Both the position numbers and the translations under genes were made by a program. DNA of 64,000 nt from Eledone cirrhosa (taxonomy: Eukaryota), in the NCBI GenBank assembly GCA_964016885.1, contig OZ024743.1:369582001-369646000 (forward strand), given 5' to 3'. The notes beneath the pieces were generated by a model. That model saw only the letters and a list, made by a program, of their open reading frames with translations. It had not been told where the DNA came from and searched no databases. Below, piece by piece: positions 3,019-51,970 of this stretch; position 1 is the stretch's first letter, and each line of letters begins with the position of its first letter.

Positions 3019-3744
3019 AAATTGTTTAATGTAAAATTCTTGTCATTCGACTGAATTTTTCTGATCTAATGGAAATTATTTTTCTCTGGATTAGCAATAT
3101 TTCCAAGCGGTGGCAACTGATGTTCCGGAAAAGCCAGGGATCTGTTGTATGGTTTCACATTCTCCTTAGTGCTCAGGGAAGGTTGACATGTCTTTGACAT
3201 AACTGAGGGTCCTCCCAACACTTTGTTTGGCAACCTTTCTATGGCTGGATGCCCTTCCCATTACCAACAGTCTTTTCTCATGCACACTACATCCAATACC
3301 TCTTATGCTACATTTTTCTCTCAGTTTGCTTATGCTATGTCGTTCATGCACACTAACATTACACAAACCATCGTAGCATATTCAACTCATTTATTTCTAG
3401 CCTCCACAGATCTTCTGCCATCAAGGCCCTTGTTTCACTGCCACATGACATTGCAGTTCATACACAATCATCATACAGTCTACCCTTGACTCGGAGTGAA
3501 AAGCATTTTGTTGTTAGCAGATTTTTAATGTTTTAACATGTCTGACTCCTTTGCACATATATACTACCATCTCAAAAGTGTAGTAGAATGTATAGCATTG
3601 TTTTCAAGATTCCACTTATTTGTCTGGAATGGGGTTTGTTCTGTCCCCAGACTAATCTTAACTATAATAAAGTAAGGAGTGCGGGACTGCATCCAGAATA
3701 AATTTTTTTATCCCGTTTGTAAAATAAGTTCGATTACTTTGAAT

Positions 3745-4130
3745 AAATAATTGTTTCTACTTTTGGCACAAGGCCAGCAATTATTCAGTGCATTACTGGT
3801 ACTTTATTTTATCGACCCCCATAAGGATGAAAAGCATAGTTAACCTCGGCGGGATTTGAACTCAGAATGGCAAGGGCCGTAACTCAATGCGTCAAAGCAT
3901 GGCGTCCGACCCTCTATCGATACTGCCAATCCACCGAATAAATAATTGTTTCTACTTTTGGCACAAGGCCAGCAATTACCCAATGCATTACTGGTACTTT
4001 ATTCTATCGACCCCGGAAGGATGAAAGGCAAAGTTAACCTCGGCGGGATTTGAACTCAGATCATACAGGGAGGTAACTCTATGCTTCAAAGCATGGCATC
4101 CGATCCTCTACCGATACTGCCAATCCACCT
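3745..4130 (-). mobile_element. Tandem dimer of a second tRNA-derived SINE (resembles octopus OK/OR-type SINEs)
   Basis: Two units of about 190 bp. Minus strand TGGCAGTATCG...GAGTTCAAATCCCGCCGAGG...GGGGTCGATAAAATAAAGTACCAGT. Other copies at about 58585-58770, 45335-45500 and 11300-11405. Confidence 0.8.
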
Positions 4131-13905: not shown

Positions 13906-14249
13906 CATCATCATCATCATCAACATTTTACGTCCGCTTTTCCCTGCTTGCAAGGGTGGGGCGGGAACTGATTCTGGCAGGATTTCTACAGCTGGATGCC
14001 CTTCCTAACACCAACCTCATTTACAGTGAGTGCTGGGTGCTGTTTTGCCGTGGCACCTCCACGACCAGTTTGCAGTGGAATGATAGGGACCCCAGTCCCT
14101 ATCATCTCATTTCTACAGCTGAGTAAACTGGAGCAATGTGAAATAAAGTGTCTTGCTCAAGGAAACAGCACATCACCCGGTCTGAGAATTGAACTCACAA
14201 CCTTTCGATTGTAAGGCCAATGCTCTAACAACTAAGCCATGTGCCTCCA

Positions 14250-14250
<1 letters not shown>
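13905..14250 (-). mobile_element. tRNA-derived SINE with RTE-derived 3' tail
   Basis: Minus strand: A box TGGCTTAGTTG, B box GAGTTCAATTC, tail GTTAGGAAGGGCATCCAGCTGTAGAAA...GGACGTAAAA(TGA)n shared with RTE 3' UTRs in this window. Confidence 0.88.
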
Positions 14251-17170
<2,920 letters not shown>

Positions 17171-17295
17171 GTGAAGATAGACATAGAATATTCGAAAATA
17201 TTCTGTATGTTTATAATAAACATTTTGAAGACCTAATCGCTATAGAATAGAATACGTCACGTATTACAATTAGATTCTCGATAAAAGCAAGGGAA

Positions 17296-17338
17296 GTAAC
17301 CTACGCGTTTCATTCTTATTAGAAATCTTCAGGATTAC
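17296..17338 (-). ncRNA. Inverted copy of the family B hammerhead
   Basis: Reverse complement of 17607-17649. Confidence 0.85.
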
Positions 17339-17606
17339 ATTCCCTTGCTTTTATCGAGAATCTAATTGTAATACGTGACGTATTCTATTCTATAGCGATT
17401 AGGTCTTCAAAATGTTTATTATAAACATACAGAATATTTTCGAATATTCTATGTCTATCTTCACATATATATCGCTACTTCAGAGCATTTATTCCAATTT
17501 CTAATTTCTGCCGGACCGGCAACCGCTCTTTCAAACCAGTTCCTGTACACAGCTAAGTATTCTATAAGTCTCTAGCTGTGTCATTCTCGATAAAAGCACT
17601 GGATAT

Positions 17607-17649
17607 GTAATCCTGAAGATTTCTAATAAGAATGAAACGCGTAGGTTAC
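17607..17649 (+). ncRNA. Minimal type I hammerhead ribozyme (canonical core)
   Basis: GTAATC-CTGAAGA-TTTCTAATAAGAAT-GAA-ACGCGT-A-GGTTAC. Stem I GUAAUC/GGUUAC, stem II UUCU/AGAA, GUA triplet. Confidence 0.85.
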
Positions 17650-17979
17650 TTCCCTTGCTTTTATCGAGAATCTAATTGTAATACGTGACGTATTCTATTC
17701 TATAGCGATTAGGTCTTCAAAATGTTTATTATAAACATACAGAATATTTTCGAATATTCTATGTCTATCTTCACATATATATCGCTACTTCAGAGCATTT
17801 ATTCCAATATATATGTATGTATATATATATATGTATGTATATATATATATGTATGTATATATATATATGTATGTATATATATATGTATGTATATATATAT
17901 GTATGTATATATATATGTATGTATATATATATATATGTATGTATATGTATGTATATATATATATATATGTATGTATATT

Positions 17980-18010
<31 letters not shown>

Positions 18011-18209
18011 ATATGTATGTATGTATATATATATGTATGTATATTTATATATATATATATATGTATGTATGTATATATATATGTATGTATATATATATGT
18101 ATATGTATGTATGTATATATATATGTATGTATATATATATGTATGTATATTTATATATATATATATATGTATGTATGTATATATATATGTATGTATATAT
18201 ATATGTATG

Positions 18210-18272
<63 letters not shown>

Positions 18273-18357
18273 GTATGTATATATGTATATATATATGTAT
18301 ATATCTATATATGTATGTATATATATATGTATGTATATATGTATATATCTATATATG

Positions 18358-18636
18358 TATTTCGTTTCTGAATTTGACAAACAAAATGGCGTAGGATAGA
18401 AGAAAGGAAAGGCACAGAAACGAAGAAAGAAATCCCCAGTCACTGAAGAGGTCACAGAGTGTGTGACGAAAGAACTATGACTATATATATATAAACAACT
18501 ATCTGGTTGTGGAACCAACCAACCAGAAATTTATAAATTTGTAAATTTATAAATATTTAATAAATTAAATTGAAGTGAAAGCAACTGGTGCGTGTGTTTC
18601 TTATTGGCAACATGATCCTCCCAAAGTATAACAATA
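18358..18636 (+). mobile_element. Family C short PLE-like pseudo-LTR element between microsatellites
   Basis: Homologous to 22396-22621. Its left end (TATTTCGTTTCTGAATTTG) is the reverse complement of the 3' tail of the 22.6-kb copy. Confidence 0.75.
18438..18482 (+). ncRNA. Minimal type I hammerhead ribozyme (family C)
   Basis: AGTCA-CTGAAGA-G-GTCACA GAGTG TGTGAC-GAA-AGAACT-A-TGACT. Stems I and II pair perfectly; one extra base after A9; CUA triplet. Confidence 0.8.
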
Positions 18637-18858
18637 TCTATATATGTATGTATATATATATGTATGTATATATATATGTATATATATATATGTATATGTA
18701 TCTATATATATGTATGTATATATATATATGTATATATATATATGTATGTATGTATATATATATATGTATGTATATATGTATGTATGTATATATATATGTA
18801 TGTATATATGTATGTATGTATGTATATATATGTATGTATGTATGTATATATATGTATG

Positions 18859-18924
<66 letters not shown>

Positions 18925-18926
18925 TA

Positions 18927-19268
18927 TGATGGAGGCACATGGCTTAGTGGTTAGAGCATTGGCCTTGCAATCGAAAGGTTGTGAGTTCAATTCTCAGACC
19001 GGGTGATGTGTTGTTTCCTTGAGCAAGGCACTTTATTTCACATTGCTCCAGTTTACTCAGCTGTAGAAATGAGATGATAGGGACTGGTGTCCCTATCATT
19101 CCACTGTAAAGTGGTCGTGGAGGTGCCACGGCAAAAAAGCACCCAGCACTCACTGTAAATGAGGTTGGTGTTAGGAAGGGCATCCAGCTGTAGAAAATCA
19201 AGCCAGCATCAGTTCCCATCCCACCCTTGCAAGCAGGGAAAAAGCGGATGTAAAATGAAATGATGATG
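18927..19268 (+). mobile_element. Same tRNA/RTE SINE, opposite orientation
   Basis: High identity to the reverse complement of 13905-14250. Confidence 0.88.
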
Positions 19269-19312
19269 AATGAAATGATATGTATGTATGTATGTATGTA
19301 TATATATGTATG

Positions 19313-19379
<67 letters not shown>

Positions 19380-19515
19380 ATATATATGTATGTATGTATG
19401 TATATATATATATATGTATGTATGTATGTATATATATATGTATGTATGTATGTATATGTATGTATGTATATATATATATGTATGTATGTATGTATGTATA
19501 TATATATATATATAT

Positions 19516-20759
19516 ATCAAAGTACTAGTTTGTAGGAAAGAAAACAAGGCGGCGGTCCCTTCTGGGAAATGGTCGTGCTCGGTGTGTAGGAAAGGCGTAG
19601 GTAGAAACTCCATTTTATGTCCTAAATGCAAAGTATGGGTGCATAAAAGATGTAGTGGGATCACAGGTAAGCTAACTAAGAACATAGATTTTACATGTGG
19701 CCGGTGCTCTGGTGCAATAAGTAGCAGCAAGTGCCCACAAACTACTAGCTCTTTCAATTGCGCAGAGGGTTCTATAGAAATAGTGGACAGCTTCCGTTAC
19801 CTGGGCGATAAAATCAGCAGTGGGGGAGGGTGCTCTGAAAGTACTGTAGCTAGAGTCAGAACTGGTTGGAAAAAGTTCAGAGAGCTTATACCACTATTAG
19901 CTGCTAAAGGGTTCTCACTAAAAATGAAAGGCAGGTTGTACGATGCCTGCATACGAACAGCAATGCTGCATGTCAGTGAGACCTGGGCATTGTGTGCAGA
20001 GGATATACGCAGACTAGAGAGGAACGAAGCTTGCATGCTCCGCTGGATGTGTAACAGTAATATACGTGAACGGCAAAGCATAAACGAACTAAGGAATAAA
20101 TTAGAGATAAGAGGGATCAGATGTTGTTTACTCGAGAGAAGGCTACGTTGGTATGGACACGTGATGCGCATGAAAGTCGATAGCTGTATAACAAAGTGCA
20201 GGGCAATAAAGATAGACGGTAGTCACGGAATAGGCAGACCTAGAAAAACCTGGGACGAGCTGATAAACTCCGACATCACACACTTACACCTCTCCAAGAC
20301 AATGTCACTGGACCGAGACCTTTGGCGGTACTCAGTAACAGAGAAGACCCGCCTTACCTAAATATATAGTAAAACCTACTCCAGCCAGTAGGCATCTCTA
20401 ACAAAATACACCCCGTCCCACCACCCCCACCCCCACCCGATCCACACCACCCCGTTCTATGTAAAGTTATGTTGGTGCCGCGCCATCGAGGCCGAAACAA
20501 ATGAGATCGTGTAGGTGTCACGACAAAAAAACACACAGTCCACGCTGTAATGTGGCCGTGTAGGCAACACGGTAAAAACCTCCCAGACCCACACTGTAAA
20601 TGTGGTTGGTGTTAGGAAGGGCATCCAACTGTAGAAAACCTGCCAGACAGTCCTATGCGAGCAAGACAACCACTCTTGCCTCAAGTGGGACTACCCCCGT
20701 CCAAACCCATGCAAGCGTGGAACACGGACGTTAAACGTTGATGATGATGATGATGATGA

Positions 20760-20760
<1 letters not shown>
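19516..20760 (+). mobile_element. RTE-clade LINE, 5'-truncated (ORF C-terminus with Cys/His finger, 3' UTR, (GAT)n tail)
   Basis: KVLVC...[28 protein letters not shown]...FRYLG...RLRWYGHVMR...GRPRKTW, stop at 20361. Confidence 0.93.
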
Positions 20761-22395
<1,635 letters not shown>

Positions 22396-22402
<7 letters not shown>

Positions 22403-22621
22403 ACGAAAGAACTATGACTATATATAAACAACTATCTGGTTGTGGAACCAACCAACCAACCAGAAATTTATAAATTTATAAATTTATTATAATAAATTGA
22501 AGTGAAAGCAACTGGTGCGTGTGTTTCTTATTGGCAACATGACCCTCCCAAATTATAACAATATCGGTTTCAACACACGATTTCAGATAAAGAATCTTGC
22601 TAAACAAATTCAGAAACGAAA
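22396..22621 (+). mobile_element. Family C copy, 5'-truncated inside the hammerhead stem II
   Basis: Starts GTGTGTGACGAAAGAACTATGACT and matches 18459-18636, then continues into an extra tail and (TA)n. Confidence 0.75.
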
Positions 22622-22625
22622 TATA

Positions 22626-22675
<50 letters not shown>

Positions 22676-22723
22676 CATCAGGAAAGAAGGTTTACATGGT
22701 TTGCTATACAAAAAAGTTTTTAA

Positions 22724-22842
22724 TCACATAGCTTACATTTGTTTCACTGGGCTGGTATGTCTAGAGATCGCTATCCGCCTAATTTTGCGTCACTCGATCG
22801 CCAATACAGAATTATAACCAGTCAGATCTTCGGAGCATGCGA
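22724..22842 (-). ncRNA. Hammerhead-like fold with long stem II insert (core CCGAAGA, U4C) in a short element between (TA)n tracts
   Basis: Minus strand TCGCATGCT-CCGAAGA-TCTGACTGGT...ACCAGCCCAGT-GAA-ACAAATGT-A-AGCTATGTGA. Stem I is 9 bp with one bulge. Confidence 0.55.
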
Positions 22843-22844
22843 GA

Positions 22845-24508
<1,664 letters not shown>

Positions 24509-25277: not shown

Positions 25278-26946
25278 CCAAAGATCTCGGTCCAGTGACA
25301 TTGTCTTGGAGAGGTGTAAGTGTGTGAGGCCGGAATTTATCAAGGGTCTGCCTACTCTGTGGCTACCGTCTATTTTTATCGCCGTACACTTTTTTATACA
25401 GCTGTCGTCTTTCATGCGCATCATGTGACCATACCAACGTAGTCTTCTCTCGAGTAAACAACATCTGATCCCTCTTATTCCTAATTTCTCACTTAGTTCC
25501 TTTATCCTTTGCCATTCACGTATATTACTATTACACATCCAACGGAGCATGCAAGCTTCGCTCCTCCAGTCTGCGTATATCCTCTGCAGAGAATGCCCAA
25601 GTCTCAGTGCCATGTAACATTGATGTTCGTATGCAGGCATCATATAGGCTGCCTTTCATTTTTAGAGAGAAACCTTTAGCGGCCAATAGTGGTATAAGCT
25701 GTCTGAACTTTTTTCATCCCGTTCTGACTCTAGCTACTGTACTTTCAGAGCACCCTCCACCACTGCCTATTTTGTCACCTAGGTAACGGAAGGTGTCCAC
25801 TATTTCTATAGAACCATCTGTGCAATGGAATGAGCTAGTATTCTGTGGGCACTTGCTGCTACTTATTGCACCTGAGTACCGGCCACATATAAAATCTATA
25901 TTCTTAGTTAGCTTACCTGTGATCCCACTACATCTTTTATGCACCCATACTTTGCATTTGCATTTGGGACATAAAATGAAGTTTCAGGCTACTCCTTTCC
26001 TACACACTGAGCATGGCCATTTCCAAGATGGGTCTAGTGCCCTATTTTCCTTCTTACAAACTAGAACTTTAGTCTTAGACAGGTTAATTTTAAGGCCTTT
26101 TAATTCTAGGCCATGCTTCCATGTTTGGAATTTCTTCTCTAGTTCAGCCATTGATTCAGATATGAGCGTTAGATCATCTGCGTATAGCAGTTCCCATGGG
26201 CAGCCGGTCCTGAACTCCTCTGTTATAGCCTGAAGGGCAATAATAAATAGGAGGGGGCTAAGGACGGAGCCCTGATGAACACCAACTTTTACGCTAAACT
26301 CTTCACTATATTTGTTGTTAATTCTAACCTTGCTGACTGTTTCTTTATACAGGGCTTGTATAGCTCTCACAAGCCATTCGTCAACACCTAGTTTTCTGAG
26401 AGCCCACCAGATAATCGAACGGGGGACTCTGTCGAAGGCTTTCTCCAAGTCGACAAAAGCTAAGTATAGGGGTTTACTTTTAGCTAGGTACTTCTCCTGT
26501 AGTTGTCGTACAATGAAAAGAGCGTCTGTGGAACTTTTGCCTGACACAAACCCGAACTGCATTTCATCCAGATCAATTCTCTCTCTGATTAGTTGTGCTA
26601 TTACTTTTTCCGTGACCTTCATGACCTGGTCGATTAATTTAATGCCTCTATAGTTACTCCTATCTAGGGCATCTCCTTTACCCTTGTAGCAGTTAATGAT
26701 GATGCTGCTACGCCAGTCCTTCGGAACAACCCCATTCTGTATGACTTGGTTTACTATCCGGGTGACCATGGTGTGTCCCACCGAACCAGATGCCTTCAGC
26801 ATTTCAGCAACTATTTCCGAAGGCCCAGCCGCCTTACCTGTCTTCATATCTTTGATTGCCTTACTTATTATACTACCTTCAACTAACACTGCTGGTCCCT
26901 CTATTGGGTCGATGTGGGGGAGACTGTCTTTCTCCCATTTATTCTC

Positions 26947-26948
<2 letters not shown>
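25277..26948 (-). mobile_element. RTE-clade LINE RT domain fragment, frameshifted
   Basis: [32 protein letters not shown]. Both ends abut (TA)n. Confidence 0.93.
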
Positions 26949-26983
<35 letters not shown>

Positions 26984-27313
26984 GTATATATGTGTATATG
27001 TATATGTATATATGTGTATATATATATGTATATATATATGTATATATATATGTATATGTATATATGTATATATGTGTATATATATATGTATATATATGTA
27101 TATATATGTATATATATGTATATGTATATATATGTATATATATATGTATATATATGTATATATATGTATATATATGTATATATATATATATGTATATATA
27201 TATGTATATATATGTATATATATATGTATATAGAGAAAGAGAAAGAGCGAGAGAGAGAAAACACTGGAAGGTAATTTCCGTAGTGGTAGAGCACTCAATC
27301 CATGGGACGAGTC

Positions 27314-42979: not shown

Positions 42980-43990
42980 GCATCACAGCCAACGTGTTCG
43001 TGGCAAGATTGGCCCTGGATCTATTCTTCAATGCTAAACATGAAGGCTACATTTTCAGAGCTAAGGCGCATGATCTTAGGAGGGAGGGGGCTAAAGCCAT
43101 TCAATGGGCCTGAGTGGCAGAGGCAAGGCATGGCAACAAAGTCACAATCTGGTTTTTGGCAGACAACAGTGGACACATAGTACTTGATCCTAAGCAGATA
43201 TGTGAGGTTTTTGAACTACACTTCACTCAAATGTTAGGGTTTGTTCAAGGGATGAATTTCGGAGCCTATTTCGTTGCCCTACCACGGCTTTTGATGAGGG
43301 AGGTAGAGTGTTGTGAAAAACCAATAACAGTCGAGGAAATATGGGATGTAATGGCAAACATGCCAAACTTGTTCGGCGACATCCTAGTGGACATCCTATG
43401 CCAACTGGCAGCAGAACGGGAGAATTCCCATTTCTGTGAGTCGAGGGGTGGTAGCACTGTTGAGAAAGGCCCCAAACAAGCGGACCATATAGACAATTTC
43501 AGGCCCATGGTGTTAGAAAAGAGGTTGGCGATTGTCGTTGGTGGTCTGGTAGGGGAGGCGCAAACACGCTTTTCTGGACAGATCCATCCATCACAAACTC
43601 CTCCTCATGCGATACATCATAGAGAGGGTGGCTAAGGAACCAGGCACGGGTTCGTCTCTCATCAATTTAGATCAATCAAAGGCTTTCGATGGAGTCAACC
43701 ATCACTACCTTGTGGCTGTCCTCAAAGCAGCCAGATTTGGGCCCATTTTCAGGGGCTGGATCACGGCAATGCACAGCGACATCTGCTCTGTGGTTAGAGT
43801 GAACAGTCACCTTTTGAAACCCTTCAACATCATGTGCTTTGTCCGCCAAGATTATTCCCTCTCCTCCCTTTTGTATGTATTGACTCTTGAGCCAATACTA
43901 CACAATTTGAAGACTTTGAGAGGCATCCCGTGCAAACTAAGATGGGGGAGATCCGTGTCAGCATTTGTTGATGATGTCACCATAGTGAGA
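42980..43990 (+). mobile_element. Degenerate Tx1/L1-group LINE RT fragment
   Basis: LINLDQSKAFDGVNH, VRQDYSLSSLLYVLTLEP, SAFVDDVT. Confidence 0.8.
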
Positions 43991-44502
43991 GCTACTGTCC
44001 TTCCAGATGAATTGGAGGAGCACATCTCATTGAATATGTTCTTTTTTTGTCATGGTTTCTTTAACTGGATGCTCTTCCTGATGCTAACCACTTTACAGAG
44101 TGTACCAAGCGTATTTCATTGTGGCACCAACACTCATTCATAGTTGGAATTACTTCATAACACAAATACTCTTGAGAAAAACATGAATGCTGCAAATACC
44201 CATTTCTACTTCTTATATAATTCTGACATGTAAGTGGATAAAGTGTATGAATATTTTGAGTTCAAAATCAGTATATTGAAATTAACATATCTCAACTGAC
44301 TGTCTCAACAGCCTATCACCCACACACCCCAGAAAGCTACCAGTCCTACTTTATAGTTCTTTCTAAGTTATCTAAAAACTAAGTTGTCCCACATTAACTC
44401 ATAACATCCTGTAATGATTTAGAAGAAAATATGGTTTTATTAATTCAAATGTTTATAGTACAGACAAATCATTGGGAAAATTTGTAGTAAACTAAAAATA
44501 AA

Positions 44503-46547: not shown

Positions 46548-47876
46548 ATCATCATCATCATCATCATCATCATCAACGTTTAACGTCCGTGTTCCATGCT
46601 TGCATGGGTTTGGACGGGGGTAGTCCCACTTGAGGCAAGAGTGATTGTCTTGCTCGCATAGGACTGTCTGGCAGGTTTTCTACAGTTGGATGCCCTTCCT
46701 AACACCAACCACATTTACAGTGTGGGTCTGGGAGGTTTTTACCGTGTTGCCTACACGGCCACATTACAGCGTGGACTGTGTGTTTTTTTGTCGTGACACC
46801 TACACGATCTCATTTGTTTTGGCCTGGATGGCGCGGCACCAACATAACTTTACATAGAACGGGGTGGTGTGGATGGGGTGGGGGTGGTGGCGGGACAGGG
46901 TGTATTTTGTTAGAGATGCCTACTGGCAAGGCGGGTCTTCTCTGTTACTGAGTACCGCCAAAGGTCTCGGTCCAGTGACATTGTCTTGGAGAGGTGTAAG
47001 TGTGTGAGGTCGGAGTTTATCAGCTCATCCCAGGTTTTTCTAGGTCTGCCTATTCCATGGCTACCGTCTATCTTTATTGCCCTGCACTTTGTTATACAGC
47101 TATCGACTTTCATGCGCATCACGTGTCCATACCAACGCAGCCTTCTCTCGAGTAAACAACATCTGATCCCTCTTATCTCTAATTTTTTCCTTAGTTCGTT
47201 TATGCTTTGCCGTTCACGTATATTACTGTTACACATCCAGCGGAGCATGCAAGCTTCGTTCCTCTCTAGTCTGCGTATATCCTCTGCACACAATGCCCAG
47301 GTCTCACTACCATGCAACATTGCTGTTCGTATGCAGGCATCGTACAACCTGCCTTTCATTTTTAGGGTGAACCCTTTAGCAGCTAATAGTGGTATAAGCT
47401 CTCTGAACTTTTTCCAACCAGTTCTGACTCTAGCTACAGTACTTTCAGAACACCCTCCCCCACTGCTGATTTTATCGCCCAGGTAACGGAAGCTGTCCAC
47501 TATTTCTATAGAACCCTCTGCGCAATTGAAAGAGCTAGTATTTTGTGGGCACTTGCTGCTACTTATTGCACCAGAACACCGGCCACATCTAAAATCTATG
47601 TTCTTAGTTAGCTTACCTGTGATCCCACTACATCTTTTATGCACCCATACTTTGCATTTAGGACATAAAATGGAGTTTCTACCTACGCCTTTCCTACACA
47701 CCGAGCACGACCATTTCCCAAAAGAGCGTCTGTGGTACTTTTGCCTGACACAAACCCAAACTGTATTTCATCTAGGTCAATTCTCTCTCTGATTAGTTGC
47801 GCTATTACTTTTTCCGTGACCTTCATGACCTGGTCGATTAATTTAATGCCTCTTTTAAATTAATCGACCAGGTCAT
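46548..47876 (-). mobile_element. RTE LINE, same subfamily as 19516-20760, with internal deletion and terminal fold-back
   Basis: 263-aa ORF nearly identical to the 19.5-kb copy. Jump to upstream RT sequence at about 47720. 22-bp inverted repeat at 47825-47876. Confidence 0.92.
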
Positions 47877-48793: not shown

Positions 48794-49503
48794 CAAAGCT
48801 CACTACTCTCCCTGTTTGCTGAAAATTATGTGTGTTGGATTCTAATAGAATTCCAGTAATAATGAGGAACTGATTATACAGAGCGGTCGCTGGTCCAGCA
48901 GAAATTGAAAATTAGAATTGGTGCTCTGAAATAACGATATATATATGAATGTATATATAGTGTGTTTTGCAATACATTGTATGCTTAATTAAAAGCATTT
49001 TGAAGACCATACGCTATTGTTTTAAAGTAGTGGCAATGTCACTTACTTAAATTTTCAGCAAACAGGGGAGATAAGCCGATAGATCTCTGTTTCGTACTTG
49101 TTGGTACTTATCAAAGCTCACTACTCTCCCTGTTTGCTGAAAATATGTGTGTTGGATTCTTATAGAATTCCAGTAATAATAGTCAGGAACTGATTATACA
49201 GAGCGGTTGCCGGTCTAACAGAAATTGAAAATTAGAATTGGTGCTCTGAAATAGCGATATATATATATATATGAATGTATATATAGTGTATTTTGCAATG
49301 CACTGTATGCAAAGTATGATAAGTACTGGAATTCTATAAGAATCCAACACACATAATTTTCAGCAAACAGGGAGAGTAGTGAGCTTTGATAAGTACCAAC
49401 AAGTACGAAACAGAGCTCTGTTAGCTTATCTCCCCTGTTTGCTGAAAATTTAAGTTAGTGACATTGCCATATATATCGCTATTTCAGAGCACCAATTCTA
49501 ATG
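48794..49503. mobile_element. Family B-related element: 318-bp tandem unit plus inverted arm
   Basis: CAAAGCTCAC at 48794 and 49112. About 49325-49503 is inverted. The segment GAGCGGTTGCCGGTC...TGCTCTGAAATAGCGATATATAT aligns to the reverse complement of family B. Confidence 0.8.
49381..49427 (+). ncRNA. Type I hammerhead, U3-A8 core variant
   Basis: GAGCT-TTGATAA-GTAC CAACAA GTAC-GAA-ACAGAGCTCTGT-T-AGCTT, with palindromic stem III. A second copy lies on minus at 49073-49119 (triplet AUC). Confidence 0.75.
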
Positions 49504-50354: not shown

Positions 50355-51970
50355 TCATCATCATCGTTTAACGTCTATCTTCCATGCTAGCATGTGTTTA
50401 GACGGGAAGTGTCCTTCTTGAGGCAAGATTGGTCATCTCGCTCGTATAGACTGTCTGGCAGGTTTCCTAACACCAACCACGTTTACAGTGTGGACTGGGA
50501 GGTTTTTACCATGTTACCTACACGGCCATATTACAGCGTGGACTGTGTGTTTTTTTTGTTGTGACACCTACACAACCTCATTTATTTAGGACTGAATGTT
50601 GTGGTACCAACATAACTTTACACAGAAAAAGGTGGTGTAGATGGGGGTAGGGGTAGTGGGATGGGGGTGTATTTTTGGTTAGGAGGCACCTACTGACTGT
50701 AGGTTTCGCTTTGTACTTAGGCAAGGTGGGTCTTCTGTATTACTGCGTAGCGCCAAAGATCTCGGTCCAGTGACATTGTCTTGGAGAGGTGTAAGTGTGT
50801 AAGGTCGGAATTTATCAAATCATCCCAGGTTTTTCTGGGTCTGCCTACTCCGGGGCTTCCATCTATTTTGATGGCCCTGCACTTTTTTATGCAGCTGTCG
50901 TATGTCATGCGCATCACGTGACCATACCAACGTAGTCTTTTCTCGAGTAAGCAGCACCTGATCCCTCTTATTCCTAAGTTCTCACTTAGTTCCTTTATCC
51001 TTTGCCGTTCACGTATATTACTATTACACATCCAATGGAGTATGCGAGCTTTGTTCCTCTCCAGTCTGCGTAGGCCCTCTGCACGTAATGCCCATGTCTC
51101 ACTGCCATGTAACATTGCTGTTCGTATGCAGGCATCATACAGCCTGCCTTTCATTTTTAGAGAGAAACCTTTAGCGGCTAATAGTGGTATAAGCTCTCTG
51201 AACTTTTTCCATCCCGTTCTGACTCTAGCTACTGTACTTTCAGAGCAGCCTCCACCACTGCTGATTTTGTCACCCAGGTAACGGAAGGTGTCCACTATTT
51301 CTATAGAACCATCTGTGCAATGGAATGAGCTAGTATTCTGTGGGCACTTGCTGCTACTTATTGCACCTGAGCACTGGCCGCATATAAAATCTATATTCTT
51401 CGTTAGCTTACCTCTGATCCCATTACATCTTTTATGCACCCATAAAATGGGACATAAAATGGAATTTCTACCTACTCCTTACCTACACACTGAGCATGGC
51501 CATTTCCCAGAGGGGACCAGTGCCCTGTTTTCCTTCCTACATACTAGAACTTTAGTCTTAGACAAGTTAATTTTAAGGCCTTTTGATTCTAGGCCATGCT
51601 TCCAAGTTTGGAATTTCTCCTCTAGTTCAGCCATTGATTCAGCTATGAGTGTTAGATCATCTGCGTATAGAAGTTCCCATGGGCAGCCGGTCTTGAACTC
51701 ATTTATTATAGCCTGAAGGGCAATAATAAATAGGAGGGGGCTAAGGACAGAGCCCTGATGAACATCAACTTTTACGCTAAATTCTTCTCTACATTCGTTG
51801 TTAATTCTAACCTTGCTGTTTCTTTATACATGGCTTGTATAGCTCTCACGAGCCATTCATCAACACCTAGTTTTCTAAGAGCCAGATAATGGAGCGGAGG
51901 ACTCTGTCAAAGGCTTTCTCCAAGTCAACAAAAGCTAGGTATAGGGGTTTACTTTTAGCTATGTACTTCT
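50355..51970 (-). mobile_element. RTE LINE, 5'-truncated at (TA)n
   Basis: 240-aa ORF plus upstream RT motifs ([24 protein letters not shown]). Confidence 0.92.

Follow-up and report, generated by a model that had tools for sequence, protein, structure and literature searches.

The closest described systems to the element reported here are the metazoan non-LTR retrozymes (Cervera and de la Pena 2020, PMC7229834; Li, Clavereau and Pollet, bioRxiv 10.64898/2026.07.22.740005). These are described as noncoding tandem units of 170-400 nt, each with a type I hammerhead, which occur in thousands of dispersed copies and have a proposed Penelope origin; circular RNA and cleavage are demonstrated for published members. 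Endonuclease-bearing Penelope-like elements target microsatellites and are described with partial tandems, an inverted 5'-truncated arm and, at one end, a tail of about 30 nt (PMC8557442, PMC3846280, PMC11167929), and the tail has been traced to two reverse transcription (RT) start sites, with both DNA strands extended (PMC11167929). Two further reports concern the hammerhead core. The Cercyon Penelope-like elements of Schistosoma mansoni carry a U3-A8 core in a Penelope context (about 1,300 hits), in minimal hammerheads that lack helix III, have a long helix II and occur mostly as single motifs (PMC4209133). U3-A8 covariation is also described in several natural ribozymes, where such cores are reported to be active in vitro, as is a palindromic helix III that permits dimers in repeat-type hammerheads (Perreault et al. 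2011, PMC3088659).

In a 64-kb stretch of DNA from Eledone cirrhosa, here called the window, we find an element that shows the testable features of a non-LTR retrozyme, together with the insertion features listed above for Penelope-like elements, and works like a retrozyme. Both the element type and the U3-A8 swap were already known; here the known core variant is the majority form. Compared with the published retrozymes, this family is known from genomic DNA alone, and it has U3-A8 in most subfamilies, an outer helix of 16-18 bp and a 12-nt palindromic helix III. Unlike Cercyon, it combines a canonical-like motif and a 4-bp helix II with noncoding tandem units and close sisters that have either core, and unlike the endonuclease-bearing Penelope-like elements, its units have no reading frame. 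It also offers a series of close subfamilies that spans the swap, together with a conserved alternative helix, neither of which is found in the portion of PMC3088659 on which we draw. A literature search of main texts, with few subscription papers among them, returned no published account of this family, of such a subfamily series or of the alternative helix, and the supplements of PMC4209133 and PMC7229834 may list similar elements. We consider it probable that the family consists of noncoding tandem elements of about 320 bp, with one type I hammerhead per unit, that are likely mobilized by a Penelope-like reverse transcriptase/endonuclease and have fixed U3-A8 as a compensatory swap, likely under selection for a ribozyme that is predicted to self-cleave and that the element would need in order to spread.

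Two head-to-head insertions in the window

A first-pass annotation had described a 318-bp tandem element at 48794-49503 (here family C) as homologous to family B, with a 310-bp unit at 17171-17808. The units do repeat at these periods (48794 to 49112 in C, 17340 to 17650 in B), but both elements are head-to-head insertions and not simple tandems, and the outer helix cited for family C lies in the inverted plus arm. The parts are as follows.

48794-49310, minus strand: family C minus arm, about 1.6 units of the 318-bp repeat, with its 3' end cut off inside a second hammerhead core
49052-49143, minus strand: complete hammerhead hairpin of the family C minus arm, with core UUGAUAA at 49114-49108 and a predicted cut after 49078
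49200-49215, minus strand: conserved motif just 3' of the distal insertion end, with a second copy at 48880-48895
49324-49502, plus strand: family C inverted plus arm, whole extent, carrying the outer helix cited in the annotation
49324-49469, plus strand: first segment of the plus arm, from unit position 220, across the cut site, to 47
49461-49502, plus strand: last segment of the plus arm, unit positions 126-167 after an internal jump, stopping at the family-wide distal (tail) 3' site
49355-49372, plus strand: 5' arm of the outer helix, which extends helix I; exact reverse complement of the 3' arm
49433-49450, plus strand: 3' arm of the outer helix; exact reverse complement of the 5' arm
49386-49392, plus strand: core U3 U4 G5 A6 U7 A8 A9, with the U3-A8 pair
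49393-49406, plus strand: helix II, 4 bp, with closing pair G10.1-C11.1 and a 6-nt loop
49407-49422, plus strand: G12 A13 A14, then the 12-nt palindromic helix III (49410-49421); predicted cut after 49422
17163-17808, no single strand: family B insertion, head-to-head, within a long TA microsatellite; the left arm extends to the proximal 3' site and the right arm to the distal one
17583-17671, plus strand: family B hammerhead hairpin, with a 16-bp outer helix, a 6-nt palindromic helix III and a predicted cut after 17643
17613-17619, plus strand: family B core CUGAAGA, within the hairpin at 17583-17671

Both strands of the 64 kb were scanned with a type I hammerhead descriptor in which positions 3 and 8 were free to form any Watson-Crick pair. 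The scan returned exactly four type I hammerheads, two per family: 17613(+) and 17332(-) in B, with core CUGAAGA, and 49386(+) and 49114(-) in C, with core UUGAUAA. These cores and the four outer-helix arms read as the annotation had them, and the arms are exact reverse complements. Hairpin folding of all four gave z scores of -6.4 to -12.2, and none of 200 shuffles folded as well. In Rfam, the hammerheads matched Hammerhead_HH9 only, at 13.5-20.4 bits, below the gathering score of 52; this excludes only that Rfam family, and the threshold is no defining feature of the ribozyme class. Other Rfam matches in the window (150 listed of 283) were set aside, being sub-threshold matches to miRNA families that lie nearly all on simple repeats.

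Opened at the predicted cleavage site, the B and C units are identical at 210 of 330 columns end to end (64%), with an alignment score of 192, where the best of 200 shuffles scored 47. The hammerheads lie in register within the aligned units. The proposed homology extends over the full unit, and the hammerhead regions are themselves positionally homologous. Both window copies of family C are slightly decayed relative to the family state: their cleavage triplets are GUU and AUC where the family has GUC, and the minus-arm hammerhead has a C-A mismatch in helix III.

Several other features were recorded in and around these insertions. The fixed state of family B includes a U-U mismatch at 10.1-11.1 (window 17613-17640), and an axolotl retrozyme is described with a mismatch of this kind in helix II (PMC7229834). 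In most C subfamilies the outer helix starts with a splice-acceptor-like TTTTCAG and is followed by a donor-like GTAAGT (window 49355-49460); the acceptor-like signal is missing from one C3-G8 subfamily, and neither signal is clear in family B. Introns near the hammerhead are known in Penelope elements (PMC4209133). Mobile-element fragments separate very long, impure TA microsatellite tracts of about 2.9 and 3.7 kb at 14249-24508, and RT-like frames lie at 19279-20358, 25987-27294, 43114-44140, 46913-47767 and 50720-51478. At 3741-4129 there is a 194-bp tandem duplicate of a dispersed repeat, which we take to be SINE-like, and its sequence also flanks several of the loci sampled elsewhere in the genome.

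A superfamily with eight invariant core positions

The search was extended to the 3.0-Gb host genome, where a motif outside the ribozyme has 2957 matches at no more than one mismatch, giving a superfamily of about 3000 motif matches. Loci were taken from most of the first 100 listed motif matches, together with loci picked through family C, and 178 units were extracted. Of these, 145 passed anchor filters that lean toward C and dropped some C3-G8 copies. The sampled units form ten subfamilies. A further search, with 25 letters fixed and positions 3, 7 and 8 left open, added another two.

In the 13 consensuses, which include that of family B, three helices surround the core in type I order. U4, G5, A6, A9, G12, A13, A14 and A15.1 are invariant, A15.1 pairs with U16.1, residue 17 is not G, and the cleavage triplet is GUC or GUA. 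Position 7 is free (U, G or A). Positions 3 and 8 always form a Watson-Crick pair, U-A in 10 consensuses and C-G in 3; within the superfamily, 10 of 12 consensuses are U3-A8 and the other two, close sisters, are C3-G8. The tandem units of 310-320 bp, each with its type I hammerhead, fall within the size range of retrozymes (about 170-400 bp). No frame of at least 170 amino acids with a recognizable coding role was found inside the units, and a unit is too short for a reverse transcriptase.

Insertion ends and the probable link to Penelope

The ends of the insertions carry Penelope-type traits, namely an inverted 5'-truncated arm, a tail at one end and two fixed 3' ends. Among 357 mapped 3' ends, 307 fall at two sites about 27-30 nt apart, and the sites are the same in B and C. 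Where both arms of a head-to-head pair end at fixed sites, 87 of 93 pairs use one of each. Distal ends adjoin (TA)n in 116 of 144 cases, compared with 264 of 3000 random flank windows. Conservation between B and C peaks at 34 of 40 columns in a stretch immediately 3' of the distal site. The minimal RNA of PMC11167929 offers an analogy that makes this conserved motif 3' of the tail a likely candidate for a Penelope protein-binding site. A search for an autonomous partner that shares the motif found none, as all 28 motif matches are B or C copies.

Direct fusions to the coding sequence of one Penelope family, recognized by RT and GIY-YIG matches, were found at 2 of 90 free 5' ends among 221 loci. 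We treat the fusions as a lead only, because the tail of this Penelope family differs from the retrozyme tail and because the fusions are accounted for equally well by insertion where a TA run common to both comes to an end. At both loci (L302:2883-3510 and L303:1164-4100) a retrozyme 5' end is joined to Penelope coding sequence at the conserved motif. The left arm of L303 begins with retrozyme sequence at the short end and then passes into Penelope; the right arm consists of Penelope sequence and stops at its long end. This is possibly one event on two templates. The same Penelope family is abundant (1621 candidates). In its minimal hammerhead, position 4 of the consensus core is C, as it is in 27 of the 28 copies listed (L272-L301), with a query that itself carried C. 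In one example, L273, the hammerhead lies near 1611 on the minus strand. The 3' ends of this family also fall at two fixed sites, about 40 nt apart, at (TA)n.

Predicted cleavage and the role of the hammerhead fold

Self-cleavage by these hammerheads is a prediction. Insertion 5' ends do not pile up at the predicted cut site in the U3-A8 class, with 15 ends at +1 to +15 and 10 at -15 to -1 (p=0.42), nor in the C3-G8 and B classes. A pile-up had been suggested by a coarser first mapping; it weakened with subfamily-specific references and was dropped.

The lack of a pile-up is consistent with a different role for the hammerhead, in which the fold is preserved so that the Penelope protein can bind or package it, with cutting vestigial or so slow as to be of no consequence. 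In the same direction, cleavage was dispensable in vitro for the anole element, the one purified Penelope system, where hammerhead mutants had no effect on insertion and no reads ended at the cut site (PMC11167929). The minimal hammerheads of Penelope elements cut poorly in vitro (PMC4209133). Such a role fits less well with eight core positions that are invariant across elements only 64% alike, or with a cleavable triplet retained in 13 of 13 consensuses. It also leaves the 3-8 pair to be accounted for, as this pair is a contact of the active hammerhead fold, for which rescue of mutants is described (PMC11167929). On balance we regard binding or packaging in place of cutting as unlikely, and a self-cleaving retrozyme remains our preferred reading. 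Counter-evidence to that reading comes from one locus (L241, G000:C1:56078396-56078904), where a 163-bp deletion derivative from which the hammerhead is entirely absent formed a tandem array with a normal tail end; a search of the genome for this derivative found no other locus, and its restriction to one locus counts in favor of the reading.

Covariation of the hairpin helices

Among the consensuses, the 3-8 pair has changed on both sides, and so have one pair in helix I, three pairs each in helix II and the outer helix, and two in helix III. Changes on one side only lead to G-U, except at the outermost helix I pair, at the helix III center in the C3-G8 group and at a terminal gap, and the G-U states are intermediate between Watson-Crick states. 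The proposal that structure is kept while sequence turns over is borne out, since helices I, II and III and the outer helix all covary.

To follow this among individual copies, we used 39 distinct real copies, four per subfamily nearest their own consensus, in a covariation test. Pairing extends to 93.7% of cells, and 9 of 28 pairs change on both sides. None of 500 shuffles reached the pairing or the covariation score of the 39 copies, with the caveat that related sequences can exceed shuffles without structure; slid controls gave 30-46%. Simple counts of covarying pairs and of pair types in these copies are not above shuffles (59 and 205 of 500).

Copies differ from their own consensus at 2.5% of core, 4.5% of paired and 3.4% of other positions, and genomic copies have decayed 2.5-4.6% from their consensus. 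Because these within-subfamily differences look close to plain decay, selection appears to act on the replicating source elements and not on genomic copies. The suggestion of selection on a functional ribozyme thus stands as regards constraint, which is seen on source elements, but not as regards the genomic copies, which decay, and cutting itself keeps the status of a prediction.

The first-pass annotation had also called the extended stem I "sequence-swapped," which the comparison of B and C contradicts. The 5' arms of the two outer helices both lie 14 nt from position 3 and have 8 of 16 letters in common, and 6 of the 8 differences are transitions. Swapping of the hairpin as a module was considered and rejected, since the hairpin tree and the tree of the remainder broadly agree across C subfamilies. 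Judged from the equal distance to the core, the common letters, the transitions and the agreeing trees, the outer helix diverged in place and was not swapped.

Across the 12 superfamily consensuses, 53 of 97 hairpin columns are variable against 30 of 167 outside, although columns are not independent. This concentration of subfamily differences in the hairpin might instead reflect copying, with one arm rewritten from the other by hairpin-templated repair or template switching. Template switches are indeed frequent, and in the inverted B arm the outer helix has been rewritten perfectly. However, the complements produced by arm-to-arm copying are perfect, whereas several subfamilies have G-U states as their fixed form. 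Positions 3 and 8 are not in hairpin arms but within a single strand of 7 nt, and covariation also extends to the short helix II, where 3 of the 4 pairs show it. Copying may contribute to the outer helix and the palindrome, but as the source of the paired changes we find it improbable, and we continue to read the 3-8 change as a compensatory swap.

State of the 3-8 pair across the genome

With positions 3 and 8 left free, the exact family C context has 201 matches, 194 of them U3-A8 and none C3-G8. The family B context has 1190 matches, and the first 100 listed are all C3-G8. The best 40 family B matches are 100% identical, many of them in long arrays at 310-bp steps, which indicates that family B is very young; family C copies are 88-97% like the window copy. 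In a set of 103 copies chosen blind to the ribozyme, by the motif outside it, 87 are U3-A8, 11 C3-G8, 3 C3-A8, 1 U3-G8 and 1 A3-G8. U3-A8 is the family state of C. The covariation that had been proposed between the related elements is confirmed, with U3-A8 fixed in a C-family consensus that is not canonical and C3-G8 fixed in B. That each UUGAUAA copy decayed separately from a canonical core, as the private changes of the two window copies might suggest, is refuted to near certainty by 194 exact U3-A8 matches against 0 C3-G8 in the C context and by 87 of 103 copies in the ribozyme-blind set. One copy (L092, G000:C1:93473380) carries A3-U8, a third Watson-Crick form, together with helix III damage, and is probably a product of chance decay.

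Within the superfamily, the identical 25-letter context has 119 matches, and a hand count of the first 100 listed gave 70 C3-G8, 24 U3-A8, 2 C3-A8, 0 U3-G8 and 4 others. A second, C3-G8 context has 249 matches, with 90 C3-G8 and 0 U3-A8 among the first 100 listed (hand count). Between the nearest U3-A8 and C3-G8 sisters there are 12 differences in 264 columns, every one of them inside the 97-column hairpin. The U3-A8 and C3-G8 copies in the 25-letter context represent one evolutionary event, not 94; the close sister pair is a far better witness of covariation than the comparison of B with C, and it is still a single event.

The swap had been given a direction, from C3-G8 to U3-A8, and this was not sustained. 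In our attempt to polarize it, AU tests that left out the core columns rejected none of the root positions (p 0.07-0.74); once the core columns were included, one root position was barely rejected at 0.047. Family B is too distant to root the C-superfamily tree. The two C3-G8 subfamilies may nest inside the U3-A8 set when the core is masked, in which case the canonical core would be a reversion.

Half of the sampled family B words also occur in sequencing runs of three other organisms, although the copies of B in this genome are nearly identical to one another; this may reflect close relatives, transfer or mixed samples. The C unit was compared with contigs of four runs, three of them from other organisms; in these three, single low-depth contigs cover the core and show no 3/8 difference among those listed, and these are not counted as evidence.

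A palindromic helix III and an alternative helix

Helix III is a symmetric palindrome in every subfamily, with a 12-bp self-duplex in the U3-A8 subfamilies, and it fits the dimer model described for animal type I hammerheads (PMC4209133). In monomer folding, the active secondary structure is predicted to be disfavored by 3.2-7.5 kcal/mol in the U3-A8 subfamilies, which counts against the self-cleaving reading, and the predicted preference is for an alternative helix that takes in residues 3-5. This helix of 7 bp pairs the helix I 5' strand and core residues 3-5 with the 5' half of helix III. It is 95.9% paired over the 39 copies, with slid controls at 28-59%, and position 3 takes part as U-G, U-A and C-G pairs. 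Among 189 copies, a perfectly palindromic helix III center is absent from 30 of 30 with C3-G8 and present in most with U3-A8. In silico, C3-G8 beside a perfect palindrome costs a further 2.2-3.0 kcal/mol in four of four backgrounds.

These predictions suggest, tentatively, a built-in lock. The alternative helix would disable the core of a monomer, and in tandem a 12-bp intermolecular helix III would displace it, with the 3-8 swap coupled to the tuning of this balance. The lock draws on computed energies and on few independent changes, mostly transitions through G-U, which by a rough reckoning would have about one chance in four of arising without selection, and we put it forward as a rather doubtful possibility.

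Proposed cycle and implications

In the cycle that we favor, tandem arrays would be transcribed, and the palindromic helix III would pair two neighboring hammerheads, so that both cut and release unit-length RNA that may circularize. A Penelope protein would then bind the conserved motif 3' of the tail and nick (TA)n DNA, and one cDNA started at each of the two fixed sites would give a head-to-head insertion with a tail on one arm. Because only source elements would pass through this cycle, constraint would be visible between subfamilies while genomic copies decay.

The rule of one arm per start site (87 of 93) means that retrozymes are linked to Penelope-type priming not only through phylogeny but also through mechanism. 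For surveys of such elements, searches that demand CUGANGA would miss most copies of the superfamily, and the two sisters that differ by 12 letters and have opposite 3-8 pairs provide a ready-made pair for assays. As to the role of the hammerhead in the Penelope life cycle, insertion in vitro can do without it in the only system studied in this way. In the family described here, the subfamilies keep the catalytic core intact while the surrounding hairpin changes faster than the remainder of the unit, a pattern that speaks for the ribozyme being of importance in vivo.
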